A stretch of DNA of 64,000 bases from Bacillota bacterium. GTDB lineage: Bacteria; Bacillota; Clostridia; Christensenellales; SZUA-584. Below, one piece after another: positions 8,663 through 63,004 of this stretch (the stretch's first letter is position 1; each line of letters begins with the position of its first letter). The DNA lies in the NCBI GenBank assembly GCA_023408075.1, contig JAEYKW010000015.1, positions 319,170 through 383,169 of the forward strand, read 5' to 3'. A program made the position numbers and the translations under genes. The notes under the pieces are model-generated. The model was not told where the DNA came from and ran no database searches. It saw nothing but the letters and a program-made list of their open reading frames with translations.

Positions 8663-8920
8663 ATTTTCGATTATAAATGAATTCGGCCAAAACATAAAGC
8701 GCATATTTTGCCCGATCAGGCTTGATAAAAGCGTGCCGCAATGCCCGAGAGCGACAATTGACAGTAATCTTTCGTATTCCTTACCGGTCATCGGCGACGA
8801 CATCATCCGAAAAACAGTCTGCTGCTCTCGACAACGAAAACTGATATCGTATTAAAACGCCGGGCGCATATTTTGCCTGTTCTGACGCAAACTATCAGCA
8901 AACGACAACGGAGGAAACAC

Positions 8921-9142
8921 ATGGGCGTTTTTAAGAACATGGGGCTTATGCCCGAGATCGAGTCCAAAAATCTGATGATCATAGAAGACCAGCTCAAGCA
9001 CGAGGCGCTGGCGGCCAAAAAGAGCGAGGTGTACGCGGATTATTTTGCCGACCCTGGGCTCAAAAGCCTCGCTCAGCAGCTGTCCAGGCATCACCGCGAC
9101 AACTACAACCACCTGCTTGGCTATTTGGACACACACAAATAA
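8921..9142 (+). CDS. Spore-coat-associated small protein, partner of the CotF-like gene
   Basis: GGAGGAAACAC-ATG at 8921, a 73-aa helical protein immediately upstream of the CotF-like ORF. Confidence 0.45.
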   Translation: MGVFKNMGLMPEIESKNLMIIEDQLKHEALAAKKSEVYADYFADPGLKSLAQQLSRHHRDNYNHLLGYLDTHK

Positions 9143-9153
9143 GGAGAAAAGCT

Positions 9154-9432
9154 ATGATAAATCAACAGCCGGATTTTTCGGAACAGGAACTTTTGAACGA
9201 CCTTCTGAATCAGGAAAAGCAGATGGTCACGTCTTACGCGACATTTTTGACCGAAGCGTCGTGCCATAATCTGCGCAAAGTGCTTTCGGGAAACTTAAGC
9301 CAGACGAGCCACGACCAGTTTCAGGTTTTCGAGCAGCTGCGCGACAAGGGCTATTATCAGGGCAACGACGCGAGCGATCAGGAAGTTTTAAAGGTCAAAA
9401 GCACCTACAAAGCCATGCAGGACGAGCTATAA
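9154..9432 (+). CDS. Spore coat protein F (CotF)-like protein
   Basis: ELLNDLLNQEKQMVTSYATFLTEASCHNLRKVL matches the Coat_F four-helix signature as I recall it. Confidence 0.6.
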   Translation: MINQQPDFSEQELLNDLLNQEKQMVTSYATFLTEASCHNLRKVLSGNLSQTSHDQFQVFEQLRDKGYYQGNDASDQEVLKVKSTYKAMQDEL

Positions 9433-9474
9433 TTTTGTCCTGTTAAATTTTCCACCCTTTTATGATAAAGGGTG

Positions 9475-9503
9475 TTGACAAATGTAAATTTCAGCGTTAC
9501 GAT
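9475..9503 (+). promoter_or_regulatory. Sigma-A-type promoter of the TetR gene (TTGACA-17-TACGAT)
   Basis: TTGACA at 9475-9480, a 17-nt spacer, then TACGAT at 9498-9503. The operator palindrome starts 2 nt downstream. Confidence 0.55.
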
Positions 9504-9504
9504 A

Positions 9505-9530
9505 TGAATGAATTTAATAATATTCATTCA
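9505..9530. promoter_or_regulatory. Putative TetR operator 1: perfect inverted repeat TGAATGAAT-N8-ATTCATTCA
   Basis: The 9-bp arms are exact reverse complements. It sits between the promoter and the TetR ATG (9540). Confidence 0.6.
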
Positions 9531-9539
9531 GGATGGGCT

Positions 9540-10118
9540 ATGGAAGACAAAAAAAGGCGCCTTTATGAAAGCGCAAAAGAGCTGTTCAGCCGCAAGGGCT
9601 TTAAAGAGACAAACGTATCCGACATCACGAAAGAAGCCGGTATGGCCGTGGGCACCTTCTACAACTACTACGCGTCCAAAGAAAAGCTGTTTATGGATAT
9701 CTTTCTCGACGAGAACATCAAGCTCAAAAAAAGCATGGTGGACAGCGTCGATGTAGATCAGGAGCCTTTGGGCGTGGCGCGCCGGATGATGGTGCTGAAC
9801 ATGCAGGGCATGCAGGCAAATCCGATACTCAAGGAATGGTATAACAAGAGCGTCTTTGACAAGATTGAGCAGCTTTACCGCGAGGAAAACGGAATCGAGG
9901 CTGTCGATTTCATGTACGACACATTTTTGCATCTCGTGGAGAAATGGCAGGCCGAAGAGAAGATGAGGAAGGATTTAAGCAGCAGAATGATCATGGCCAT
10001 TTTTGCCGCCATCATCAACATCGACACACACAAGGAAGAAATCGGTCTCGAATATTTTCCTGAGCTCATGGAGACGATCACCGAGCTCGTTTTTAAAGGC
10101 TTGTGCGACTATGACTGA
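9540..10118 (+). CDS. TetR/AcrR family transcriptional regulator
   Basis: MEDKKRRLYESAKELFSRKGFKETNVSDITKEAGMAVGTFYNYYASKEKLF is a canonical TetR N-terminus. Confidence 0.85.
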   Translation: MEDKKRRLYESAKELFSRKGFKETNVSDITKEAGMAVGTFYNYYASKEKLFMDIFLDENIKLKKSMVDSVDVDQEPLGVARRMMVLNMQGMQANPILKEWYNKSVFDKIEQLYREENGIEAVDFMYDTFLHLVEKWQAEEKMRKDLSSRMIMAIFAAIINIDTHKEEIGLEYFPELMETITELVFKGLCDYD

Positions 10119-27861: not shown

Positions 27862-27911
27862 GCCTGGTGACCCACCGGAGATTCGAACTCCGGACACCTT
27901 GATTAAAAGTC
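27862..27911. repeat. Prophage attachment site, left copy (orphan 3' fragment of tRNA-Lys)
   Basis: 50/50 identical to 62096..62145. It contains the T-arm, acceptor 3' strand and CCA but no 5' half, so it is not a functional tRNA. Confidence 0.9.
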
Positions 27912-28062: not shown

Positions 28063-28461
28063 TCACGAGTATTGTTGTTGATCGATTCTATGGTACTGCC
28101 CGGTGAATATGAGTTCATATGCGATCTCGTCTGCCCGTTCCTCGGAGTGATCTCCCTCGTATGAAATAGCATAATGGTGCCCCATCTCATGGGCCAGAAT
28201 ATATAGCAGATCAATTGCGTCTTGGTCGATGTATATTTCTTTGCTTGCTTCAAAGTATACGCCAAAAGCTGTTTCATGTCCATGCTGTTTCGCAATCGGC
28301 TCAAGGTCCTCATTTGATACAACATATACCGGTACGCCCTCTTTCTCAGCTAACTTAAGAATGTCCGCAGTACCAATCGGACAGCTTACAAACATAAAGA
28401 AACAGATGGCCAGCGCCAATGTTAAGAGAAAAGCGATAACATACGGAATTTTAATCCTCAT
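28063..28461 (-). CDS. Membrane-anchored/secreted HExxH metallopeptidase-like protein (ImmA/IrrE-like motif), prophage cargo
   Basis: MRIKIPYVIAFLLTLALAICFFMFVSC N-terminal anchor. ILAHEMGHHY followed by SEERADEIAYELIF, spaced like the M78 HExxH...E..A..(F/I)A motif. Confidence 0.5.
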   Translation of the reverse strand: MRIKIPYVIAFLLTLALAICFFMFVSCPIGTADILKLAEKEGVPVYVVSNEDLEPIAKQHGHETAFGVYFEASKEIYIDQDAIDLLYILAHEMGHHYAISYEGDHSEERADEIAYELIFTGQYHRIDQQQYS

Positions 28462-28576
28462 ATTTCCATACCCCTCAATATTACTTCTATCATCTTTCGA
28501 GTACAAAAAAAGGGACTCCAAGCAGATGCCTGAAGTCCACTTTTTCAAGGACGTGCCGGGAGGAATCAAGTCGGCA

Positions 28577-29053
28577 CTATCCCTCATCATCAGTTTTGCT
28601 TGTCTCGGATATGTATGCTTTATCTGCCACTTTGCCTGCCTTCAGCCGGTCGATCAAGTCATGCACAAAGCCGCTGCCGCCGCCCACCGCAACGCCGGTC
28701 ACGATCTGACCAGCAACATAAGACGCGGGCGTGAACCCGGTTAAGCCGAGTGCCTCAAAGATATTAACCTGGAACAAAATGCAGAGCGTGATGCCGATCC
28801 CGGACGATACCGCAAACCACACAATAGGCCACGCTTTACCGGGAGGACGCGGCGCCGCAGAATTTGCCGCTGCCTTAATCATATCCACAACTTTTTCAAC
28901 GATGACGGCCAGCAGAACCACGGCTGCGACGTCGTCAAGCGAAGATGCGATACTGACCACGCCGACATCCGCCGCAAAAGCGACGGGAATAAAAATGACC
29001 ATCAGGACGATGGCCAGCAGAACTGTGATGATTACCATCTTTGTTTTTTTCAT
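28577..29053 (-). CDS. Putative holin (multi-TM membrane protein)
   Basis: Three to four hydrophobic helices and a charged C-terminus, immediately downstream of the endolysin and a small TM protein. Confidence 0.5.
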   Translation of the reverse strand: MKKTKMVIITVLLAIVLMVIFIPVAFAADVGVVSIASSLDDVAAVVLLAVIVEKVVDMIKAAANSAAPRPPGKAWPIVWFAVSSGIGITLCILFQVNIFEALGLTGFTPASYVAGQIVTGVAVGGGSGFVHDLIDRLKAGKVADKAYISETSKTDDEG

Positions 29054-29060
29054 AGGATAC

Positions 29061-29300
29061 CTACCTTTCATTTCTTATTTCATCAATGCGATGGTGTGCA
29101 GATTTAGTGCTTTCCTCGCATATAACTAACCGCTCTTTAATTGCATTGCTTTTATCTTGCTTTGATTCGAGCCGTTGAATGTCGCCTTGGATTGCCGCGA
29201 TTTGTGCGGATGTTTTCCCGCTCCAGCGCCCAACCAGCGCAACGTTTACTCCGATGCTGATCAAGATACCGACAAACGCAATGATTGCCGTTATATCCAT
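29061..29300 (-). CDS. Small lysis-cassette membrane protein (N-terminal TM plus coiled coil)
   Basis: MDITAIIAFVGILISIGVNVALV TM, then a heptad-like region. Sits between the endolysin and the holin. Confidence 0.4.
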   Translation of the reverse strand: MDITAIIAFVGILISIGVNVALVGRWSGKTSAQIAAIQGDIQRLESKQDKSNAIKERLVICEESTKSAHHRIDEIRNER

Positions 29301-47320: not shown

Positions 47321-47803
47321 TCAAATACTATTTAGAATATCCTTTTCGATTTCTTCCCAACATACTATATAAGTAAAATCGTAGAATTTCCCTATGTAAC
47401 CAGCAGATTGTCTTTCATAATTTTCGCGAGCTATGAATCCAGCATTCTTATTAATCTCATCGTTAGTAATTGCGTTTCTGTATCTATGCTTAATCATGAG
47501 AAGTAAAGCCGCTGCATCTTTTATTGAATGCTCAACTATAAAACTATTAAACTTTTCTGCTAATCTATCTACTTTTTCAAACTCATATACCGCCTGAATT
47601 GTTGGAATATCATCCACTTTAATTCTTGGTGCGTTTATAGCCAGTTCAACAAACTCTCTACATAAAAAGTAGAAATCATAATTCTCAGGCTTATTTTCAA
47701 TCTTGAGTATTATTTCGTCTAAGTCTGTCTCAGCCTTTTCAGTTATGATTTTCTTGTTAAATTCTCTTGCAGTTTCAGTCGTCAAAATGGTATCTCCTTT
47801 CAT
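47321..47803 (-). CDS. Orphan AT-rich hypothetical protein (prophage cargo)
   Basis: 160 aa with no motif I recognise. Much lower GC than its neighbours. Flanked by the intact and decayed copies of the same small gene. Confidence 0.5.
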   Translation of the reverse strand: MKGDTILTTETAREFNKKIITEKAETDLDEIILKIENKPENYDFYFLCREFVELAINAPRIKVDDIPTIQAVYEFEKVDRLAEKFNSFIVEHSIKDAAALLLMIKHRYRNAITNDEINKNAGFIARENYERQSAGYIGKFYDFTYIVCWEEIEKDILNSI

Positions 47804-47941: not shown

Positions 47942-48214
47942 TTAATCTGTCAACGGGTCTTTTCGTTCCATGAACCAGCGGTCTTCTTCAAGCCACAGAA
48001 ACGTTTGGTGCCCTTTCACCATGCAGGTATAGCGAGTGCCAATACCACCTGCCTTGAGCGATACTGCCCGGCATACATCAACGACTGAATCAATCTCATA
48101 CCGCCGCCCGCTTTCCCACCAAAATGCAACGGGTTCTATTTGCCCATTCGGAAAATATATCGCTTCGACCTTGACATACACCTTATATTTGTTTTCGTAC
48201 CGTCTTTCTATCAT
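47942..48214 (-). CDS. Hypothetical protein translationally coupled to the Y-family polymerase
   Basis: 4-nt ATGA-type overlap with the polymerase stop. 90 aa. Confidence 0.55.
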   Translation of the reverse strand: MIERRYENKYKVYVKVEAIYFPNGQIEPVAFWWESGRRYEIDSVVDVCRAVSLKAGGIGTRYTCMVKGHQTFLWLEEDRWFMERKDPLTD

Positions 48215-49458
48215 TGCACCATACCATCCTTAAAAAAGCCCACGGGATGTATGATGTGATCTCCTTTGGGGTTGATGCCTCCGAGAGGTTTGTCAGCCAG
48301 CATGCATGCGCGCTGCAGTGTAAAATGCCCGAAGCGGCGCCGTATCTCATCCACGGCGATGTCGAGCGCTTCGTATTTTTCACGCTGCCGCTCGTCGCTG
48401 AACACCGAAAGCTGCTGCGGTATGGAAGCGGGTATAAGATCAGTACAGCGCACGCCTAGGCTGCGGATAGGGCGCGGCCAGTTGTAATGCGCCACGAAAA
48501 GACGCATCGCCGCATCCGCGATCTCACCCGTTATGTGTGACGGGCGGGACAGCTTGCACTGGCGCTCAAAGCGGAAAAGCTCGTTGTCGCGAATGGATAT
48601 CGCCACGGTGCGGCATACAAAGCCGTGCTCACGCAGACGCGCACAGACACTTTCGCAGAGTACGAACAACGTGACCTTCACGTCCTCATTGCATGTTAAA
48701 TCGCGCGGGGTCGTGGTGCTGTTGCCGATGGATTTGATCATTGATTCCTCATCCATCTGCATCACGGGGGAATTGTCGAAGCCGTTCGCAAAGGAATAAA
48801 GAACGTCGCCCACTTTGCCGAAAATGCCATGCAGCAGCGAGAGTGGCGTGGCAGCCAGCTGGCCGATGGTGGTGATTCCTAAGCGCACGAGTTTACCCTT
48901 GGTGGCGCGGCCCACATAAAGGAGCTCATCCACGGGCAGCGGCCACGCGACGGATTTGTAATTGTCTCTGCTGATCAGTGTGGTGGCATCCGGCTTTTTG
49001 ATATCAGAACCGAGCTTGGCAAATATCTTGTTGTAGCTGACGCCCACAGATGCCGTGACGCCGAGCTCTCGTGTCACGCGGGCCCGTATCTCGTTGGCGA
49101 TGTGTACGCCATCTTCACCGCTCACGTCGAGCCATGCTTCGTCGAGGCCGAACGGCTCAATCTGCGAGGTGTAGTCAGCGTAGATACTGCGGGCGAGCTT
49201 TGCGTAACGCAGGTAAAGTGGATAATTCGGAGGCAGCACGATGAGACCCTGGCATTTTTCTCGTGCCTGCCAAAGCGCCTCGCCTGTCTTTATGCCGGTC
49301 GCTTTAGCGATATAATTTTTTGCCAACACTATGCCGTGCCGCAGTTCCTCGTCGCCGCCGACAACAACCGGATTGCCCCGGATTTCAGGCCGGTGCACGC
49401 ACTCCACGGACGCGTAAAAGTTATTCATATCGCTGTGTAAAATGACCCGCTGCTTCAT
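48211..49458 (-). CDS. Y-family (DinB/UmuC-like) translesion DNA polymerase
   Basis: ILHSDMNNFYASVE, FGLDEAWLDVSG and SVGVSYNKIFAKLGSD motifs. Confidence 0.9.
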   Translation of the reverse strand: MKQRVILHSDMNNFYASVECVHRPEIRGNPVVVGGDEELRHGIVLAKNYIAKATGIKTGEALWQAREKCQGLIVLPPNYPLYLRYAKLARSIYADYTSQIEPFGLDEAWLDVSGEDGVHIANEIRARVTRELGVTASVGVSYNKIFAKLGSDIKKPDATTLISRDNYKSVAWPLPVDELLYVGRATKGKLVRLGITTIGQLAATPLSLLHGIFGKVGDVLYSFANGFDNSPVMQMDEESMIKSIGNSTTTPRDLTCNEDVKVTLFVLCESVCARLREHGFVCRTVAISIRDNELFRFERQCKLSRPSHITGEIADAAMRLFVAHYNWPRPIRSLGVRCTDLIPASIPQQLSVFSDERQREKYEALDIAVDEIRRRFGHFTLQRACMLADKPLGGINPKGDHIIHPVGFFKDGMVQ

Positions 49459-54011: not shown

Positions 54012-54242
54012 TTATCTTTTTATATATAATGGTTCCGTTTGATCGCTGCTTTCAAGAAATAAATATGTAATACTCAGATGCGGAAAACATTTATTGCGTA
54101 TATTAAGCATTTCGTTTCGTGTAAAATCCGTCTTTCCAGAGAGTTTGCTGCGAAGTGTGTTATACTTAATATCCGCTATTTTCGATAGGGTTAAAATATC
54201 ATATCCACTTCGGCCCATTTCGGCCTTTAAATTGTTGAACAT
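54012..54242 (-). CDS. Cro-like early regulator
   Basis: 76-aa HTH-like protein (ILTLSKIADIKYNTLRSKLSGKTDFTRNEMLNI). Divergent from the repressor gene. AGGAGG RBS. Confidence 0.6.
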   Translation of the reverse strand: MFNNLKAEMGRSGYDILTLSKIADIKYNTLRSKLSGKTDFTRNEMLNIRNKCFPHLSITYLFLESSDQTEPLYIKR

Positions 54243-54253
54243 GCCTTTTCCTC

Positions 54254-54342
54254 CTATGATGTGTCGTATTTATAATGAATTTTATTCTACACATCATATA
54301 TTGTCAATACCAAATGACAAAAAAAATACGATGCATCATATA
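54254..54342. promoter_or_regulatory. Lysis-lysogeny switch: three copies of an ACAYATCATAT-like operator motif plus divergent promoters
   Basis: O1 at 54254-54266 (inverted: acgACACATCATA), O2 at 54287-54300 (tACACATCATATAT), O3 at 54328-54342 (acgATGCATCATATA). Leftward promoter TTGACA (54307-54302)-18-TAAAAT with O2 in its spacer. Rightward extended -10 TGGTATAAT at 54368-54376. Confidence 0.55.
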
Positions 54343-54406: not shown

Positions 54407-54835
54407 ATGGATTTTATTGAAAAACTAAATGCCTTGTTAAAAGAGAAGGGTATCAGTCGTGCCGAACTAGCTAAAAATGCAGATATTCCATATACCACTA
54501 TCGTGAGTCTATATGAAAAGGGTTATCAGAATGTCAAACTCTCTACTTTACGTCGGCTCGCATCCTACTTTAGGTGTAGCCTAGATTATCTTACAGATGA
54601 TTCTATATCAGACAGATACTTCGGTGTTACAGCTGACTATGCAAATGGAAGAACGAAACATAAGAATGCCATTATTTTAGAAGGTGATTTGCTCCCACCT
54701 GAACTTCAAGGTCTTGATATTAAACTTGAAGTTATTAAAGCTGTCGCTGATAGCGGGCTGAACGAGAAGGAAATAAAACTCGCTTTAAAACTCTATAAAC
54801 TGTACTCAGAGGATTACACCGATGACCACAAATAA
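54407..54835 (+). CDS. CI-like prophage repressor (XRE HTH, no S24 autopeptidase domain)
   Basis: KGISRAELAKNADIPYTTIVSLYEKGYQNVKLSTLRRLASYFRCSLDYL. 142 aa. Divergent from cro. Confidence 0.75.
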   Translation: MDFIEKLNALLKEKGISRAELAKNADIPYTTIVSLYEKGYQNVKLSTLRRLASYFRCSLDYLTDDSISDRYFGVTADYANGRTKHKNAIILEGDLLPPELQGLDIKLEVIKAVADSGLNEKEIKLALKLYKLYSEDYTDDHK

Positions 54836-55247
54836 TAATTGATTTTATTTTCACAGTCTACGCTCCTTTTTTAAGAAAGCTCACATCTAAATCGCTGAAT
54901 ATATATTAACAACTTCTAGGTGTTCATGTCTCTCTAATCATTATATCAAAAAGCTAAGTCGCACTACTATTAAGTTTAACTCTTTTTAAATTTCAATCTA
55001 CACATCAAATTAATCATCACTTTTTCGACTCAAAAGCATTATACCACTAAATTTGAACTCACTACTGCAATCTTTCTTACCTTCACTTCGCTATTTATTA
55101 ATTTGTCAATACCTAAAATAAAATTCTTATTGATGTAATACTTCTTTGCTGTTATGATGGTAACACAAGAAAACTTAACATGTCAATAAACGGAAACATT
55201 TGCATTTGAATCGCAAGAATGCATAACATTCATATCGAGGTAGAATA

Positions 55248-55955
55248 ATGAGTGTAAAAAAAGCAGATGAAAATAATTACAATAAAGCTTTTCCATCAAG
55301 ACTCAGGGCTTTATTAGACAATGAAAATCAAATTAGTCCTCTTGGAAAGAAAGTTACTCAAGTAGAACTTGCCCAGGCTTTTCATGACAATGGGATACCT
55401 GTAACTCGGCAAACAATAAGCTTATATGCTAATGGCAATACTACACCGGACATTGAGAAGTTCAAATTTATTGCGGACTATTTCAAAGTATCATATGACT
55501 TTTTACTTGGTGTTTCTGAAGCTACGAGTAGAGATAACGTGCAAATAAATAAAGAACTTGGATTATCCGAAAAAGCTATAAATGAGCTTAAGAAAATTAA
55601 AGATATGGGAAAAGACGGTCAAGCTATGCCAAGAGATATAAATTTTATATTTCAAACAATTGATTTTTTGATATCAGAAAACTGGTTCTTTATTGTTTCA
55701 CCTGTCGCCCGTTATGCCCTTACTTTATCAAAAATAAAAAAAGAAGTGAGGAACGAAGAAGAAAAAGGGAAGAAATTATATGTTGATTCATATAAATTAC
55801 CCACTGAATTAAGTCCCCATCTTAGATTTATCGAATGGGAAATGGTGGAGATGATACGCGACACTACAAAAAAACTAGCAGAAAAACTAAGTGATAAATT
55901 TGATACGGATGGATTACAGGAAAAAATCGATTCAGATTTAAATCAGTGGTTGTAA
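55248..55955 (+). CDS. XRE-family HTH protein with a ~150-aa uncharacterised C-terminal domain
   Basis: KVTQVELAQAFHDNGIPVTRQTISLYANGNTTPDIEKFKFIADYFKVSYDFLLG. Candidate promoter TTGATG-17-TATGAT roughly 90 bp upstream. Confidence 0.7.
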   Translation: MSVKKADENNYNKAFPSRLRALLDNENQISPLGKKVTQVELAQAFHDNGIPVTRQTISLYANGNTTPDIEKFKFIADYFKVSYDFLLGVSEATSRDNVQINKELGLSEKAINELKKIKDMGKDGQAMPRDINFIFQTIDFLISENWFFIVSPVARYALTLSKIKKEVRNEEEKGKKLYVDSYKLPTELSPHLRFIEWEMVEMIRDTTKKLAEKLSDKFDTDGLQEKIDSDLNQWL

Positions 55956-56185
55956 ATGAAAAGCCGCTTAAGGATGAAAGCGGCCTTGGCGGAATGCGCC
56001 ATCTCTGGTAGGCAAATGAATCTTGGGCTATTGGCCCTCCGTAATTTAGGAGGGCCTTTTTTATTCTGCTATAATTAGCATATGCAGGAATTAGCGACAA
56101 TCTGTCGAAATAAGCAAAATAAGGTTGCGCATCATAAGCACTTTCATCTTTGCCTCTCAGCCCACCGCACTCATGGAGGTTAATT

Positions 56186-56662
56186 ATGAAAAGAATCTTA
56201 GCCATTATCCTTGTATGCTTCTTAGCGATCTCTTTTATAGCTTGCAGCCAATCATCAGCCCCAGATGAAAAAACACTGGCAAAAGCAAAAAGTTCTGTTT
56301 CCTCTCTTGTTAAAGATAGCACGGCGGAACCGACACAAAAACAGGCTATCATATCAACCGCCACGCCATCACCGGAACCGACGCTGGAGCCTACGCCGGA
56401 GCCGACTCCATCTCCCACGCCCGAGCCAACGCTGAAGCCCACCAAAGCACCAACGCCCGAGCCCACAATCGAGCCGACACCGGAACCCGAGCCAGCTGTC
56501 GTTGACGAGCCGAAGTCTGACGCCATTTACATCACAAAGACAGGTGAAAAATATCATCTGAGCGGGTGCCAGTATTTGAAGAAAAGCAAGATACCCATAT
56601 CGCTTGCCGATGCCAAAGCACAAGGATATACGCCTTGTTCAAAGTGTAACCCGCCGCAATAA
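56186..56662 (+). CDS. Prophage lipoprotein: Pro/Thr-rich linker plus a C-terminal Cys-rich (YH..C...C..C) small domain
   Basis: GGAGG RBS. Signal with lipobox ISFIAC. Linker PSPEPTLEPTPEPTPSPTPEPTLKPTKAPTPEPTIEPTPEPEP. C-terminus YITKTGEKYHLSGCQYLKKSKIPISLADAKAQGYTPCSKCNPP. Confidence 0.7.
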   Translation: MKRILAIILVCFLAISFIACSQSSAPDEKTLAKAKSSVSSLVKDSTAEPTQKQAIISTATPSPEPTLEPTPEPTPSPTPEPTLKPTKAPTPEPTIEPTPEPEPAVVDEPKSDAIYITKTGEKYHLSGCQYLKKSKIPISLADAKAQGYTPCSKCNPPQ

Positions 56663-56674
56663 GGAGCAATTATT

Positions 56675-56887
56675 ATGGCAAATAGGGGCGGCCTTTCGTG
56701 GAAGCGCGCGCTGGGCGTTACCAAGGCCAAACAGAGCATATCCCGGGCAACGGGCATTCCTATGACGAAGTCCGGGCGGCAGAGAAAAATCGGGAAAGCC
56801 GTAACCGGTGGCGGCTGCCTGATGACTCTATTAGGCTTATCCGTTCCCGTTATTTTGGTTGTCACGGCTCTGATTATATTGATTTAA
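56675..56887 (+). CDS. Tail-anchored small membrane protein with a basic N-terminus
   Basis: 12-nt gap after the lipoprotein gene. MANRGGLSWKRALGVTKAKQSISRATGIPMTKSGRQRKIGK, then one TM (LMTLLGLSVPVILVVTALIILI). Confidence 0.55.
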   Translation: MANRGGLSWKRALGVTKAKQSISRATGIPMTKSGRQRKIGKAVTGGGCLMTLLGLSVPVILVVTALIILI

Positions 56888-56975
56888 TATTCCCTGCAGC
56901 AGAACCGGACCGACGATTATACATAATATCAGCTGTTATCTACACCAAATTCACAATAAAAAACAGGAGGATATC

Positions 56976-57719
56976 ATGAATAAAAAACGAGTATTAGTAG
57001 TGTCACCCTTTGAAGATTTGCATCAAGAGAGAAAGATCATATCCGAAAGCCTGCAGCAGTCATCTGATTCTTTAATAGTTGAAAACTGTTCAGTTGTAAA
57101 TACAATCAGATTCAAGAAAAAAAGTGTTTTCATCTTGATATGTGATCAAAACATTAATGAAATTGAATCCCTCGAGGTATTTAAGCGTGCAAGACGAAAA
57201 CTTAATCGAATAATTATATTGGCAAAAGGTAGTTGCGCCGATCTTTATGATATTAGGCAAAAAGCCTCAATTGTCCAATGGAACAACATTAGCGATTTAG
57301 GGTGGTCGTTAGTAAAATATTTCGAGAGTGTTTTTTACTCATGGAAATGCGATAAGGTCGTAAGAAATACATTTTTACAATTCACGATAATAAGTTTGCT
57401 ATTAGTTCCGCTGTATGTACTATTTCCTGAATTTTTTATGAATTACTTTAATTCTTATAAACTTAGAATATCCCTTTTGTCTATTTGTTTATTATTGCTT
57501 ATTTATAATATACTTAGAGAAGGAATTATTTATCGGGCTGAAAATATACGCCCGGAAAGCAGAGCTCGGTTCTTTAAACCACTAATTAGAGATTTGATTT
57601 TGATTTGTGCTATTCTATTTTTGTCTATTTTGGTGACGGATGATATCGGCACATTTTTAATCTTTATTGCGCCGATGATTATTTCAGGATTAATTTCGGT
57701 TATTATAAAAGGACGCTGA
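56976..57719 (+). CDS. TIR-like/DUF4062-like N-terminal domain fused to a four-TM C-terminal domain (candidate abortive-infection effector)
   Basis: AGGAGGATATC-ATG. The N-terminus RVLVVSPFEDLHQERKIISESL...SVFILICDQ resembles the VFxSSxFxDLxxER signature I associate with DUF4062. Four hydrophobic helices lie between roughly aa 133 and 245. Confidence 0.5.
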   Translation: MNKKRVLVVSPFEDLHQERKIISESLQQSSDSLIVENCSVVNTIRFKKKSVFILICDQNINEIESLEVFKRARRKLNRIIILAKGSCADLYDIRQKASIVQWNNISDLGWSLVKYFESVFYSWKCDKVVRNTFLQFTIISLLLVPLYVLFPEFFMNYFNSYKLRISLLSICLLLLIYNILREGIIYRAENIRPESRARFFKPLIRDLILICAILFLSILVTDDIGTFLIFIAPMIISGLISVIIKGR

Positions 57720-57908
57720 AAAAGTTTCCAAGAAAAGTACGAAAGAATATCTTACGCCGTTAACCACACGAGGCCATCCATCAGAAGAAGCTCCGGATTC
57801 AAGATTGGCAATAAGCAGATTTATAAGGGGGATTGACTGGGGGAGTGTATTTTATTTGCGTTTTGCGTGTCAAAAACAAAACTCGCTTTTTCAAGTGGTG
57901 TATTCTGC

Positions 57909-57937
57909 TTGTATTTTTTATACCAATGGTGTAAAAT
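57909..57937 (+). promoter_or_regulatory. Candidate sigma-A promoter TTGTAT-17-TAAAAT for the 57971 operon
   Basis: TTGTAT at 57909-57914, a 17-nt spacer, then TAAAAT at 57932-57937, 33 nt upstream of the ATG. Confidence 0.4.
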
Positions 57938-57970
57938 ACAATTGAAATACAGTGATTCGAGGTGTTTTTT

Positions 57971-58603
57971 ATGGAAATATCGCCCCTAGAGAGTCTTGAA
58001 AACAGATTCCCTGTCCTTTTACCTTCAATAAACGGAGCTATTGATGAATCATACTCTGAAGTGGAAATGATGCTGACGACTGATCGATGCAAAAAACCTT
58101 GCTGGCGTGACTACATCCCAAAATTCTTATATTCCGCTGTGCAAACAAATGTGTGCGACAAGATCAATTTACTGGGGATCCCTGATCTTCGGGCCGAAAT
58201 GAAACTTAACAGTCGGCACAACCTCAATCATGTTGAAATCTATGGTCCCGATTTTGTGATGACGATATCTTCTGCAGACGGAGATAAAAAACCAAGACCT
58301 GCCGTTTATAGAGATGAACTCTCAACCGGAGGACAAATAAATTGGTTCCGAGAGTTTAGTGAAAACGATGACGAAGATAAACAGGTTTATTTCACAATCA
58401 CGCATCAGATTAATAAGGACGAGTTGCAAGCTGATGATATAAGAATTATTTTAATGTCATCGTCTTTATGGAGCGAGACTATTAACGAAAGTATACGAGA
58501 TCGTCAAATGCCTATTGAAAATATTACACAGACAAGCACACCGGTTGCGAAGGAAGAGACGATCACCAAGCCCGTAATGCCGGAATTGAAAATAACAAAT
58601 TAA
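57971..58603 (+). CDS. Uncharacterised 210-aa protein (candidate toxin/effector partner of the XRE-M78 protein)
   Basis: GAGGTG RBS then ATG 57971 (MEISPLESLENRF...). I recognise no motif. 40-nt gap to the next gene. Confidence 0.55.
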   Translation: MEISPLESLENRFPVLLPSINGAIDESYSEVEMMLTTDRCKKPCWRDYIPKFLYSAVQTNVCDKINLLGIPDLRAEMKLNSRHNLNHVEIYGPDFVMTISSADGDKKPRPAVYRDELSTGGQINWFREFSENDDEDKQVYFTITHQINKDELQADDIRIILMSSSLWSETINESIRDRQMPIENITQTSTPVAKEETITKPVMPELKITN

Positions 58604-58643
58604 GGTTTAAGCCTTAAATTTAATAAAAAGGAGATGATATGCC

Positions 58644-59786
58644 GTGTCTAGAAGTGATGCATTATTTATTGGACACCGTTTGACAGAGGCACGCGAAGTT
58701 AGAGGTACCACAAAGCAAGAATTAGCAGATTTATTGGGTAAGACTCACCAAACAGTTACCTCATATGAAAATGGATCGTACAATCCGGCACCTGAAGTAA
58801 TCGATGATATTTGTCGTATTCTAAAGTTGCCTTTGTCTTTTTTTACAATCGACAGAACCGACAGCTTAATCAATGCCCCGATTCAATTTCGAAGTTTAAA
58901 AAGCGCACACAAGGTCAAAAAACTTCAGATTGAAAGATGGCTTCAGTGGGTGGCAAATCGTGTTGGATACTATAAACAATACATGGACTTCCCTCCGGTA
59001 AACTTACCAAAATTCGATCTTGATTTTGGTAAACTCAGTGAATCTCAGATAGAAAATATAGCAGAAAGCGTGCGGAAGTTTTGGGGGTTAGGTAACGGTC
59101 CCATAAGCAATTTAACTCTGCTTCTCGAAAACAACGGTATTATTGTTACTCATTATAACTTCGAAGTAAAAGGTTTAGATGCTTGTTCGACGATCGCTAA
59201 TGGATTACCGCTAATACTAATCAACACTTTTGAAGCCACGTGCTCAAGGATCCTTATGGATTTAGCACATGAGCTCGGACATCTCGTTTTGCATGCCGAT
59301 GTTGATAAAGACGAGATAACCCCTGCTCAGCATAAACAAATGGAAGATCAGGCATGGGATTTTGCTGCTGCATTTTTAATGCCTGCTGATGGCTTTTCTT
59401 GCGAAGTCGTAGACACTAGGCTCACAGCTTTTGCTCTTTTAAAACGAAGGTGGCGCGTCTCGATAGCTGGGATGATTATGCGATGCCGTGAATTGTGTAT
59501 AATTGATGATTTCCGAAAAACGTATTTGTTTAAGGAAATGAACAGAAGAAAGATACGTTTAGTCGAACCCCTTGATAACGAATTAAAGATTGAAACTCCA
59601 CATCTTCTTATTGATGCAGAAAAGCTACTAACAGAGTCCGGTGAGTTAACAAAGTGGTATCTTTTAGACGCGTCCTATATTTCAGCTGATGATTATTGCA
59701 GCATTGTCGGAACTCCGACTGACTATTTTAAACGAGAAACGGTTCAACCGAAGTTAAGGCCAGATTACATTAGAATCGTAAAATAA
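58644..59786 (+). CDS. XRE-HTH :: ImmA/IrrE (peptidase M78) fusion protein
   Basis: N-terminal HTH (TTKQELADLLGKTHQTVTSYENGSYNPAPEVIDDICRILKL). M78 motifs LAHELGHLVLH and EDQAWDFAAAFLMPADGF. AGGAG RBS. Confidence 0.85.
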   Translation: MSRSDALFIGHRLTEAREVRGTTKQELADLLGKTHQTVTSYENGSYNPAPEVIDDICRILKLPLSFFTIDRTDSLINAPIQFRSLKSAHKVKKLQIERWLQWVANRVGYYKQYMDFPPVNLPKFDLDFGKLSESQIENIAESVRKFWGLGNGPISNLTLLLENNGIIVTHYNFEVKGLDACSTIANGLPLILINTFEATCSRILMDLAHELGHLVLHADVDKDEITPAQHKQMEDQAWDFAAAFLMPADGFSCEVVDTRLTAFALLKRRWRVSIAGMIMRCRELCIIDDFRKTYLFKEMNRRKIRLVEPLDNELKIETPHLLIDAEKLLTESGELTKWYLLDASYISADDYCSIVGTPTDYFKRETVQPKLRPDYIRIVK

Positions 59787-59803
59787 GCCGGGAGCTATTT
59801 TAA

Positions 59804-60817
59804 ATGGATGATAATAAAGGCAGGATCATTCTCTATCAAACCGAGGATGGCCGGACGAAGATCGATGTCAGAATGGATAACGAAACAGTATGGCTCTCGC
59901 TCGATCAATTGGCTGATCTGTTTCAGCGCGATAAATCTACGATCTCGAGGCATATAAAAAACATCTTTGAAGAGGGCGAGCTTTCTATGCAATCAGTTGT
60001 TGCAACTTTTGCAACAACTGCTGCTGATAAAAAAACATATCAAGTCACTTATTATAGCCTCGATGCCGTGATCGCAGTTGGCTACCGAGTGAAATCGCAC
60101 AGAGGCACACAGTTCAGGATTTGGGCGACTGAGCGCCTAAAGGAATACCTCGTTAAGGGCTTCACAATGAACGACGACCTGCTTAAAAAGGCGGGTGGCG
60201 GTGATTATTTTGAAGAACTCCTTGAGCGCATCCGGGATATCCGATCTTCGGAGAAGGTGTTTTATCGCAAGATACTCGACATCTACGCGACCAGCGTCGA
60301 TTATGACCCGAGAGCCGACATATCCCAGACGTTCTTTAAAACCATACAGAACAAAATGCATTGGGCCGCTCACGGTCACACAGCAGCCGAAGTTGTATTC
60401 TTAAGAGCTGATGCCGTCAAGCCTTTTATGGGCATGACGTCTTTTCAAGGAAGCAAGCCAACGAAAGCAGAAAGCACCATCGCCAAGAATTATTTGACCG
60501 GTGAAGAGTTAAATATCTTAAACCGCATTGTGAACGCCTATCTGGAATTTGCAGAGTTGCAGGCCATTCGCCGCAACACGATGGCCATGCACGAATGGAT
60601 ATTAAAGCTGGATGACTTTCTCAAAATGACGGACAGCAACATTCTCACGCACTCAGGAAGCGTCTCTCATAAAGACGCCGAGATAAAAGCGGTGCAAGAA
60701 TACGAAAAATATAAAAGGCTGCACCAGGACAAGCTTTCACCGGTGGAACAGCACTTTTTAGAGAGCATCGAAAAAACCAAAAAGCTACTTGATAAAAAAG
60801 ATAAGAAGGACAAATAA
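59804..60817 (+). CDS. RhuM-family (COG3943-like) protein
   Basis: ILYQTEDGRTKIDVRMDNETVWLSLDQLADLFQRDKSTISRHIKNIFEEGEL... and AVGYRVKSHRGTQFRIWATERLKEYLVKGF are characteristic of the RhuM family. Confidence 0.8.
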   Translation: MDDNKGRIILYQTEDGRTKIDVRMDNETVWLSLDQLADLFQRDKSTISRHIKNIFEEGELSMQSVVATFATTAADKKTYQVTYYSLDAVIAVGYRVKSHRGTQFRIWATERLKEYLVKGFTMNDDLLKKAGGGDYFEELLERIRDIRSSEKVFYRKILDIYATSVDYDPRADISQTFFKTIQNKMHWAAHGHTAAEVVFLRADAVKPFMGMTSFQGSKPTKAESTIAKNYLTGEELNILNRIVNAYLEFAELQAIRRNTMAMHEWILKLDDFLKMTDSNILTHSGSVSHKDAEIKAVQEYEKYKRLHQDKLSPVEQHFLESIEKTKKLLDKKDKKDK

Positions 60818-60843
60818 TCGGCCAGTCGAGGAAGGGAGTCCGC

Positions 60844-62016
60844 ATGCCACGTGAAGCAAAGATAAAAAAGCGCCCTGACGGCTTCTATCAGCGATCAATC
60901 ACCGTGGGCCGCCGCCCGGACGGAAAACCGCAGCGCAAAACCATATACGCCAAAACACTCAAGGAGCTCGAGGCCAAGGCTGCCGAGTTTGAAAGACAAC
61001 TTCTTCACGGTACACTCTCCAGTGATGAAAAGATGACTTTCGGTGAGCTGGCTGCGGTGTGGCTCCGGGATTATAAACCGGGCATCAGTATCACCACGCG
61101 CACCATGTACAAAAGGGTGCTGGATACCCACCTGCTGCCGGAGCTGGCCGTATATAAGCTGAAGGATCTCAAACCCCATCATCTACAGACCATCATCAAT
61201 CGCATGGCTGAGAGCGGCAAAGCAGAGAGCACAATGCGAAAGGTTAAGTTGACCGCCGCCCAAATCCTTCAGATCGCCATGGATAACGATATTCTTTACC
61301 GCAACGTATTTTCAAAAGTCAATGTCCCGGATGTGCCTGCCGCCAAGCGCCGCCCGCTGACAGACGAAGAGGTCAAGCTTGTGGTAGATACTCATACCGG
61401 CCACCGCATGGGCGTGCCCGTGCTGCTGCTGCTGTATTGTGGGCTGCGCCGTGGCGAGCTGCTCGCGCTCACATGGAATGATATTGATCTGAAAAACAAA
61501 ACTGTTACTGTCAACAAGGCGGCAGTATTCGATGTGAATATCACGCTGATGCAGACCCCCAAGTCGGCCGCAGGCGTTCGAACGGTCCCGCTGCCCGATA
61601 ATGTCTTGGAGGCCGTCAGCGCCGCCAGAAAGGCCGCACAATCGACAATGGTCTGCCCTGCAACGGATGGCCGCATTATGTCGGCTTCAGCCCTTACTAA
61701 GGCTTGGAGTAGCTATCTACACTATCTCAACATTAAAGCCGGTGGTCGTGACGCATCACGGACCCGCCCCAAACTCTCGGTGATCGACAACCTGACTCCG
61801 CATATGTTCAGGCATACATACGCCACCATTCTTTATAACGCCGGTGTCGATGTGAAGAGCGCGCAGCGGTTTCTCGGGCATGCCGATATCAATGTCACGC
61901 TTAAGATATACACCCATCTTTCAGCCCAAAAAGAGCAGGAAGCTATCGACTCATTGAACCGTCATTTAAGCAGTAATGAAACACGAAAAAATTCTGATGC
62001 AGTAAAAATGCAGTAA
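60844..62016 (+). CDS. int: Tyrosine-type site-specific integrase
   Basis: N-terminal SAM-like/arm-binding region. Catalytic motifs GLRRGELLAL, HMFRHTYAT, LGHADINVTLKIYTH. Confidence 0.9.
   Translation: MPREAKIKKRPDGFYQRSITVGRRPDGKPQRKTIYAKTLKELEAKAAEFERQLLHGTLSSDEKMTFGELAAVWLRDYKPGISITTRTMYKRVLDTHLLPELAVYKLKDLKPHHLQTIINRMAESGKAESTMRKVKLTAAQILQIAMDNDILYRNVFSKVNVPDVPAAKRRPLTDEEVKLVVDTHTGHRMGVPVLLLLYCGLRRGELLALTWNDIDLKNKTVTVNKAAVFDVNITLMQTPKSAAGVRTVPLPDNVLEAVSAARKAAQSTMVCPATDGRIMSASALTKAWSSYLHYLNIKAGGRDASRTRPKLSVIDNLTPHMFRHTYATILYNAGVDVKSAQRFLGHADINVTLKIYTHLSAQKEQEAIDSLNRHLSSNETRKNSDAVKMQ
61992..62016. repeat. 25-bp direct repeat TTCTGATGCAGTAAAAATGCAGTAA, right copy (overlaps the last integrase codons)
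   Basis: Identical to 28034..28058. It lies 79 bp from the right att copy. Confidence 0.5.
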
Positions 62017-62095: not shown

Positions 62096-62145
62096 GCCTG
62101 GTGACCCACCGGAGATTCGAACTCCGGACACCTTGATTAAAAGTC
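62096..62145. repeat. Prophage attachment site, right copy (supplies the 3' 47 nt of the intact tRNA-Lys)
   Basis: 50/50 identity with 27862..27911. Confidence 0.9.
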
Positions 62146-62174
62146 AAGTGCTCTACCGCCTGAGCTAGTGGGTC
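62099..62174 (-). tRNA. tRNA-Lys (anticodon UUU), CCA encoded
   Basis: Hand-folded cloverleaf: acceptor GACCCAC/GTGGGTC, anticodon arm CTTGA-CTTTTAA-TCAAG, T-arm CGGAG-TTCGAAT-CTCCG. 76 nt. Confidence 0.9.
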
Positions 62175-62613
62175 ATGTCTATCATGTTTTGTGGCAGAGA
62201 GCCTTTGCAGCTTCCGGCAATCGAATCCGCCGTCTCAAACCCTGCCGAACGATTATAGCATAAGCGTTTTTGATTTGTAAACCCTCAAAATAGATTATTT
62301 CTAATTTCCTTTGAGCCTTTTAGTGACATCATATTTAACCCCGGCGTATATGGCACATGTTGACAAACCCACGCATCGCCGTTATCATTTTAATCAACCG
62401 GCCGATAGTTAACTATTCACGAACCTCATGAAACAATAAGCCATTTTTATGAGCTTGTACGGGTATTAACAAAGCTTATACTTTCATAAAAGGATGAAAG
62501 GGGCAAGCGGCAATGTTCAAACTGTATTGCAGGATTTTTTCAAGCAGTCATGAGGCTGGCGACAGGTAATAGCTGCTCTTATGGCAGCACGATAACCGAC
62601 AAGAGGTTGTTTA

Positions 62614-62871
62614 ATGCAAGTCGATAATGCCACAGAGCTTGGCCATTTTGTTGATAGAGTTTACACATCAATAGGCGGCTCACAATCAAAATATGATGCA
62701 TTATTTCAGAAAATCATAGGCGGCTGTCATTGTATTCCGCCTACCGAATGGTTTGGCGATGTGTATCTTACCTTTAGAAAGCTGCTCGAAGACCATGCCA
62801 TTATTGATGAGACTTTGACCAAACAAGCGGAAGAAGTTGTTGGGCATTTTCAGGACTATTTCCAATATTAA
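62614..62871 (+). CDS. Hypothetical protein
   Basis: 85-aa ORF in an AT-rich stretch between tRNA genes, with no motif recognised. Confidence 0.3.
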   Translation: MQVDNATELGHFVDRVYTSIGGSQSKYDALFQKIIGGCHCIPPTEWFGDVYLTFRKLLEDHAIIDETLTKQAEEVVGHFQDYFQY

Positions 62872-63004
62872 ATATGCCAATCTCACATTTCAAGTCATCA
62901 ACAGCTGTTTAGTAATCCGCATATAACACCATCATCAGCTTCAGATAAAATAAAAAAAGCCTTCGAAGCTTTTCATATCTCTTAGCTATTGCATTTAAAG
63001 AGTT

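Follow-up and report, generated by a model that had tools for sequence, protein, structure and literature searches.

The repressor-integrase junction of a Clostridia-type prophage as a probable accessory slot, with a RosmerTA-type gene pair, a RhuM-family gene and three small envelope proteins

Does a block of seven genes between the repressor and the integrase of a prophage form one compact anti-phage island, as its first-pass annotation proposed, or has this junction collected genes of separate origin? The block occupies positions 55248-60817 of a stretch of 64,000 nucleotides (the window from here on), which covers positions 319,170 to 383,169 of contig JAEYKW010000015.1 in the Bacillota bacterium assembly GCA_023408075.1. 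Its seven open reading frames (ORFs) are called g1-g7 from left to right, and labels between L001 and L062 denote the contigs and elements used for comparison. We consider it reasonably probable that the block occupies the lysogeny module's accessory (moron) slot as a mosaic of at least three units of different origin and not as one system. Two of these units match defence-associated families (RosmerTA and RhuM/PDC-S05), and to that extent the island proposal stands; it loses ground at g1, a predicted repressor, and at g4, for which the proposed TIR domain finds no support. The sequence itself shows which genes are present, the families they match, their status as cargo and the conserved pairing; what we say about expression in the lysogen and about every phenotype is extrapolated from these.

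All seven ORFs were found on the plus strand, as had been described, between a gene for an XRE repressor (54407-54835) and one for a tyrosine integrase (60844-62016), inside a prophage bounded by attachment (att) sites. A Shine-Dalgarno-like sequence precedes each of them. Given the base composition, ORFs as long as g1 and g4 would arise by chance with a probability of about 1e-9, and one as long as g5 with 6e-7. The descriptors lipoprotein (g2), tail-anchored micro-protein (g3), four-transmembrane half of g4, XRE::M78 fusion (g6) and RhuM (g7) also held up.

Whether these genes are cargo can be judged from related elements: integrase homologues 71-84% identical to that of the window were traced to contigs in eight lineages. 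Their common backbone runs from an HTH_17 gene and a Cro-like gene across a divergent promoter to an XRE repressor (217-253 aa) and the integrase. The HTH_17 protein of the window is 52-70% identical to the backbone versions, which indicates that the window prophage and its relatives have the same backbone. Six elements (integrases 76-84% identical) carry the XRE repressor; five of them have it directly against the integrase or overlapping it, and the sixth (L017) has two unrelated genes in between. Two mobilisable elements (integrases 71% and 77% identical) have a DUF6076 gene in place of the repressor. Among the sampled elements only the window prophage has six genes (g2-g7, 4.9 kb) inserted between repressor and integrase, and by this comparison g2-g7 is inserted accessory cargo in the lysogeny module. 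The earlier view of the whole block as cargo is thus retained for g2-g7, which related elements lack, and given up for g1, a homologue of the integrase-linked repressors.

L017 is the only related element with an occupied slot. Its cargo (8678-9818) comprises a 306-aa protein (weak BRCT match; weak PADLOC PDC-S48 match, 5.5e-06) and a 67-aa protein (weak mad1 match), and differs from that of the window though the position is equal. A blastn search of phage collections for close relatives of the block gave nothing useful, and the relatives of the integrase in IMG/VR are only about 27% identical.

Base composition had been estimated by eye at 30-40% GC for the block, about 50% for the structural genes and about 60% for the host. 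By measurement the block averages 40.2%, the late and replication genes 50.1%, the integrase 52.6% and the clearest host stretches 58-61%, so the overall trend was seen correctly. The block is nevertheless a compositional mosaic (g1 32.6%, g2 50.5%, g3 53.5%, g4 31.9%, g5-g6 about 40%, g7 45.1%), in which g2-g3, at 51-53%, is not AT-rich. As a mark of cargo, AT-richness does not serve: GC is already low from about 52050 on, some 3 kb to the left of the block, in a zone that takes in the immunity genes, and the g1 homologues of cargo-free relatives are equally AT-rich (35-39% GC beside integrases of 49-53%). The XRE repressor genes linked to the integrase in L014, L016, L017, L019, L022 and L029 each have 35-39% GC. 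Since integrase-linked repressors are AT-rich in every relative, low GC appears to be a trait of the repressor family and not a sign of recent acquisition or of cargo.

The gap pattern (g1-g2 230, g2-g3 12, g3-g4 88, g4-g5 251, g5-g6 40, g6-g7 17 and g7-integrase 26 bp), the hairpins at 56033 and 57892 and the extended -10 site at 56067 together suggest three or more transcription units. Upstream of g1 lies an extended -10 promoter-like site (55130-55158), and the g1 unit would end at a strong terminator-like hairpin of the intrinsic type on the plus strand (GGCCCTCC...GGAGGGCC plus a T-run, 56033-56056). Upstream of g2 stands an extended -10 promoter-like TGcTATAAT (56067-56075, plus strand), a motif match only. 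A second terminator-like hairpin (57892-57911, plus strand) follows g4; it overlaps both a palindrome (57899-57951) and a weak promoter-like TTGTAT-17-TAAAAT (57909-57937) upstream of g5, and the palindrome region is a candidate promoter/operator for g5. Predicted signals at consensus level (the terminator-like ones not above the frequency in shuffled sequence) border in this way g1 and g2-g4. From g5 through g6 and g7 to the integrase no terminator-like site lies between the genes; a further promoter-like site is placed just upstream of the integrase (60789-60818). Besides tRNAs, no known RNA family was found in the intergenic gaps.

Within this last unit, g5-g6 is a predicted toxin-antitoxin (TA) pair of the RosmerTA type. 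The 380-aa product of g6 (58644-59786, plus strand) is an RmrA-type antitoxin/regulator in which an N-terminal XRE helix-turn-helix (HTH) is joined to an M78 (ImmA/IrrE) zinc peptidase. It matches the PADLOC RmrA model PDLC03947 over its full length (1.1e-106, aa 4-365), Pfam HTH_3 (1.3e-11) and Peptidase_M78 (5.7e-12), phrog_2439 (1.9e-90) and, under the family cutoff, the NCBIfam spr1629 repressor/antitoxin family (2.6e-57); here and below, PADLOC models were used as single profiles without PADLOC's own system rules. The preceding gene g5 (57971-58603, alternative GTG start 57962, plus strand) encodes a putative toxin of 210 aa, which fits the RmrT model PDLC03933 (5.9e-15; aa 22-160 against positions 21-158 of the 212-position profile) and has no predicted transmembrane (TM) segment. 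No relatives of g5 were returned by a word-indexed search of 5.8 billion proteins, IMG/VR and JGI metagenomes.

The pairing itself is conserved. A scan of genome contigs returned one related metagenome-assembled genome (L002, Eubacteriales), in which a g6 homologue (50% identical, and with the HELGH motif at aa 209-213 of g6 kept) is preceded by a g5 homologue (35% identical, E 6e-36). This second pair lies at the edge of an unrelated serine-recombinase prophage and both of its proteins match the Rmr models, the g5 homologue at 6e-11. A co-oriented upstream ORF is present in 26 of 29 metagenomic RmrA relatives; 23 of these ORFs encode 198-336 aa, many with a 4-bp overlap with RmrA. By iterative profile search, 14 metagenomic upstream ORFs and the L002 ORF form one family with g5, and a leave-out profile made of the 14 metagenomic ORFs, without g5 and the L002 ORF, recovers g5 (2e-8) and L002 (2e-13) and no other ORF of the window. 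The features that define RosmerTA at the level of sequence (an HTH plus M78/HExxH antitoxin, a conserved adjacent partner and a match to an RmrT model) are all present. More distant RmrA relatives (L052-L059, 25-32% identity) are preceded by ORFs of 198-222 aa outside the g5 family, probably another RmrT type. For at least two sub-modules of the block the first-pass annotation had recognised no named defence system; the PADLOC profile search that it called for instead returned RmrT/RmrA for g5-g6 and PDC-S05 for g7, with no match for g3 or g4.

In the literature RosmerTA (Millman et al. 2022) is a zinc-peptidase antitoxin combined with diverse toxins of unknown function; a deletion of rmrA was reportedly not obtainable, and the system reportedly had a defence phenotype. 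The RmrTA system of Gordonia phage Kita (NetFlax study) is phage-borne and also protects, and its toxin depolarises membranes. Like these systems, g5-g6 is a two-gene, toxin-first operon with an XRE HTH plus ImmA/M78 HExxH antitoxin, a toxin of unknown fold and carriage by a temperate phage. It differs in that g5 is very divergent and linked to 15 homologues at the profile level only and, from Kita RmrT in particular, in that the membrane-depolarising Kita toxin is set against a g5 product without a predicted TM segment. By analogy with the published systems, RmrA (g6) would repress the operon and restrain the putative RmrT toxin (g5) until infection disturbs RmrA; the freed toxin would then arrest the cell (abortive infection).

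TA modules are classically addiction modules, and g5-g6, possibly together with g7, might be selfish cargo that stabilises the prophage or hitch-hikes with the integrase and brings no anti-phage benefit. In favour of this, the pair travels between unrelated elements as a cassette complete in itself, and in both known prophage cases it sits at the very edge of the prophage beside the recombinase. The tested RosmerTA systems, one of them phage-borne, nonetheless protected against phage, and both roles are compatible. We regard a purely selfish function as unlikely beside the preferred reading of accessory cargo with defence-associated members.

The next gene, g7 (59804-60817, plus strand), encodes 337 aa and is predicted to be a full-length RhuM-family protein of PDC-S05, a candidate single-gene system of PADLOC. 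It matches Pfam Virulence_RhuM (PF13310, 4.7e-108, aa 64-307) and PDC-S05 PDLC04843 (6e-161, aa 1-331 to 1-328 of the 330-position profile). Homologues of g7 occur in 49 phage records; a RhuM homologue stands directly upstream of the integrase in the Streptococcus satellite Javan332, and another near the integrase of Gordonia phage Sidious, in the accessory region there. In published work RhuM genes, with predicted toxin domains, are found preferentially in the neighbourhood of restriction-modification and inversion loci, and a single representative of PDC-S05 reportedly lowered T7 and T5 plating about 1000-fold. The full-length match, the Virulence_RhuM domain with an N-terminal HTH-like region and the position in an accessory slot of a mobile element are shared with this family; the setting differs, as RhuM/PDC-S05 genes are usually found in type I restriction-modification operons whereas g7 lies between the RosmerTA pair and the integrase. 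Because no RhuM gene was found downstream of RmrA in any of the 29 metagenomic RmrA relatives or in L002, g7 is best treated as a separate module: it would act as a single-gene unit, a predicted toxin-type gene of defence islands. Its transcript is probably the one that also carries g5-g6 and the integrase.

With g5-g6 and g7 placed in named kinds, only g2-g4, three small envelope proteins, remain without one. The first, g2 (56186-56662, plus strand), has a Shine-Dalgarno sequence GGAGG and an ATG start within an ORF that opens with TTG at 56150, and encodes a lipoprotein of 158 aa with a signal peptide and lipobox (SFIAC; MKRILAIILVCFLAISFIAC) and a single hydrophobic segment at the N-terminus. 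A linker rich in Pro and Thr, which the DNA builds from 12-nt repeats, leads to a C-terminal domain of 45 aa with a conserved YH-x3-C...C-x2-C-PP (H-C-C-C) pattern, which probably binds zinc; the similarity to Ada_Zn_binding is weak and below threshold. This domain (window positions 56525-56659) matches phrog_14556, a family of unknown function (1.9e-12, aa 121-168). In the form VYITKTGEKYH-x-SGC...PC-x-VC-x-PP it ends signal-peptide, lipoprotein or TM-anchored phage proteins in the window and in three other phage sequences: gp43 of Ruminococcus phage RG-TP1 (L025, 4101-5132), which lies between a CI-like regulator and the integrase; an IMG/VR contig (L062, 4944-5264) with the order XRE, fn3 protein, g2-like gene, 167-aa ORF, integrase; and L061 (882-1313). 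A gene with this domain is thus located in the slot between XRE repressor and integrase in the three of these four cases whose gene context is known. In place of g2 an automatic gene caller proposed a minus-strand ORF of 220 aa (55864-56526). We rejected it as a Gly/Ser-rich shadow that the Pro/Thr repeat casts on the opposite strand: it lacks a Shine-Dalgarno sequence and extends across the g1 terminator.

Only 12 bp after g2 follows g3 (56675-56887, plus strand), which encodes 70 aa, basic towards the N-terminus and with one TM helix at the C-terminal end (aa 42-70). Its coding call rests solely on the Shine-Dalgarno sequence and its position in the operon. No relatives of g3 were found in four family libraries (Pfam, PADLOC, PHROGs and NCBIfam) nor by tblastn against phages; a weak similarity (E 0.005) that would make it a fragment of a protein like RG-TP1 gp43 falls on the TM segment and was not accepted.

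The third gene, g4 (56976-57719, plus strand), encodes 247 aa, of which the N-terminal stretch of about 125 aa is predicted to be soluble and is followed by four predicted TM helices. The N-terminal part had been called TIR-like. No TIR domain was found in Pfam even at E<=10 (N-terminal 127 aa), nor in PADLOC, NCBIfam, PHROGs, PDB sequences (E<=10) or 1.84 billion representative proteins, and g4 as a whole has no match in the four libraries. Its only match among 5.8 billion proteins (word-indexed) and the 1.84 billion representatives (full phmmer) is g4 itself. In a low-confidence single-sequence AF2 model (pLDDT 47.9) residues 1-125 alternate between strand and helix, which is compatible with many alpha/beta folds; the Foldseek comparison of this model with the PDB, also proposed at the outset, returned nothing at E<=1e-3, only noise, and no TIR protein in the top 50.

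What might such genes do? The three would form an envelope operon with promoter-like and terminator-like signals of its own, whose lipoprotein would display the H-C-C-C domain outside the membrane, and they may serve superinfection exclusion at the cell surface or membrane. Firmicute phages reportedly encode exclusion proteins between integrase and repressor, such as Ltp of Streptococcus thermophilus phage TP-J34 and Sie2009 of lactococcal P335 phages. Proteins of the Ltp/Sie2009 type resemble g2-g4 in their genomic slot and in the kind of product (lipoprotein or small membrane proteins), and g2 has both the signal peptide with lipobox and the location between repressor and integrase that mark the Sie type. 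They differ in that g2-g4 has no sequence similarity to annotated exclusion proteins in the four libraries and puts a 45-aa H-C-C-C domain on display. By position and topology only, g2-g4 is a plausible set of exclusion candidates.

A bolder interpretation makes g2-g3-g4 a previously undescribed envelope anti-phage module in its own right, working by superinfection exclusion or abortively. It would consist of the tethered H-C-C-C domain of g2, which recurs in this slot of unrelated gut phages, the tail-anchored micro-protein g3, and g4, whose soluble domain plus four TM helices may act as sensor and effector. A second, smaller proposal in the same direction is that RmrA (g6) controls two toxins, g5 upstream and the RhuM protein g7 downstream, since the layout may be read as toxin-antitoxin-toxin. 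We hold these proposals to be quite unlikely.

At the left border of the block, g1 (55248-55955, plus strand; 235 aa, HTH_3 4.7e-07) had been described as an XRE protein with an unknown C-domain. It turned out to be homologous over its full length to the integrase-linked XRE repressors of related elements (42% identity with L019/L022, 36% with L029 and 29% with L014/L017; for L014 a local BLASTP alignment gives 32% at E 6e-20), with which it has an HTH insertion, linker and C-terminal region in common. Judged by this homology, g1 is a CI-type repressor homologue and not a defence protein; IMG/VR holds no relatives of it. Five XRE genes homologous to g1 lie next to the integrase and are transcribed away from Cro-like genes. 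By contrast with such CI-type repressors, g1 lacks a divergent Cro partner with shared operators, and 4.9 kb of cargo separates it from the integrase. The possibility of a degraded Cro partner was rejected: tblastn found no Cro-like remnant in the 412-bp non-coding gap upstream of g1, and the operator repeats lie elsewhere.

These repeats belong to the switch that the prophage would use at present. Its CI position is taken by the XRE repressor at 54407-54835 (plus strand, 142 aa; Pfam HTH_3 7.6e-10 and PHROG transcriptional regulator/repressor families), and the Cro position of the conserved backbone by a divergent gene of 76 aa (54012-54242, minus strand), whose product shares only 17-24% identity with the Cro-like proteins of the backbone. 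Three operator-like sites of 15 bp, TATGATGTGTCGTAT and two inverted variants (54255-54340), are located in the 164-bp divergent intergenic region between these two genes, and solely there. The prophage thus appears to have changed to a different repressor/Cro pair with three operators while g1 was retained as a stand-alone CI-type repressor; this second, unpartnered repressor could confer immunity to heteroimmune relatives.

The same switch bears on another view of g6, as part of the induction circuitry of the prophage itself: a fused repressor-protease of the ImmR/ImmA type over the integrase/excision genes, with g5 as an accessory gene and neither of them cargo. The combination of HTH and M78 modules follows the ImmR/ImmA logic of ICEBs1 (though g6 unites them in one protein and has a toxin-sized gene as its partner), g6 and the integrase gene apparently share an operon (gaps of 17 and 26 bp), homologues of g6 bear the annotation cI-like repressor in phiCD27-like phages, and its PHROG carries the label 'transcriptional regulator'. 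Five related elements, however, combine an XRE repressor and this integrase family without any such gene, the prophage already has a complete switch with operators, and a toxin-sized upstream partner accompanies the g6 relatives even outside prophages, which leaves the proposal very unlikely. Equally improbable is cargo for host fitness or virulence, by which the lipoprotein, the membrane proteins and RhuM would alter the surface of the lysogen or its interaction with an animal host and not phage sensitivity: the Pfam name 'Virulence protein RhuM' (from a Salmonella pathogenicity island) and the surface-exposed lipoprotein g2 with its Pro/Thr-rich stalk speak for it, but RhuM genes, which are predicted toxins, are over-represented next to restriction-modification and other defence genes, the g2 domain is found again specifically between repressor and integrase of phages, and nothing in the block points to a eukaryotic target.

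Several observations do weigh against the reading of the block as an accessory slot with several defence-type units. For the g5-g6 pair, g5 aligns with no more than about 65% of the RmrT profile, single-sequence AF2 yielded no usable fold for it (pLDDT 36.9), and in some phages proteins like RmrA carry the annotation cI-like repressor. The evidence for defence by RhuM consists of one heterologous test in a preprint. On the side of the envelope genes, g2-g4 has no homology to any characterised exclusion protein, and g3 is of a length (70 aa) that is not significant (P = 0.04), so that it could be a chance ORF. The promoter and terminator calls, finally, are consensus matches, and terminator-like sites are not enriched (7 against 7.3 expected in shuffles).

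The element that carries the block is an intact temperate siphovirus-like prophage in the tRNA-Lys gene of a high-GC Clostridia-type host. It measures 34.3 kb and has at its two ends an exact direct repeat of 50 bp, which overlaps this gene in its 3' part: the attR core (62096-62145) lies within tRNA-Lys(ttt) (62099-62174, minus strand) immediately after the integrase, and the attL core (27862-27911), a displaced copy of the tRNA-Lys 3' part, marks the far end of the prophage. A 37-nt att core has two matches in the window and none in shuffles. The integrase (plus strand), which starts 26 bp past g7, matches Pfam Phage_integrase (1.2e-29) and phrog_1 (6.3e-77), and genes for large terminase, portal, major head, tape measure, minor tail and endolysin were recognised with PHROGs. 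An aldo/keto reductase gene of the host adjoins the left att site. A Logan contig (SRR13400336_9818, 34,244 bp; L001/L013) has nearly the exact length of the prophage and ends within the att core; this fits an assembly break at the 50-bp repeat and does not by itself indicate phage excision.

Some further features lie outside the block. At the opposite end of the prophage, between attL and the endolysin gene, the minus strand carries two small ORFs (28063-29071, 175 and 164 aa), one with a weak match to a metalloprotease PHROG (phrog_87, 2.5e-06) and neither with a Pfam match; this pair may be a second accessory slot. The early region contains a Y-family DNA polymerase gene (impB/mucB/samB, IMS; 48211-49458, minus strand) and, beside it, an ORF of 160 aa and low GC (about 38%; 47321-47803) without a family match. 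Beyond attR, a spacer of about 0.8 kb and about 40% GC (62175-63000) separates tRNA-Lys from a tRNA-Gln/His/Arg cluster and includes an 85-aa ORF (62614-62871) without a Pfam match. The distance from integrase to RecO is about 670 bp in the related host locus L014 against about 1370 bp in the window, and the spacer may be a remnant of an older insertion.

Our results do not overturn current understanding; their value lies in the annotation and in the choice of candidates for exclusion and defence assays. They add to RosmerTA a very divergent RmrT family with about 16 recognised members, all of them upstream of RmrA. They also draw attention to a small secreted or tethered H-C-C-C domain that recurs in this slot of gut Firmicute phages. 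Overall, the locus offers a clear example of a phage family whose repressor-integrase junction fills with defence-type cargo, and close relatives in which the slot is empty provide the contrast.

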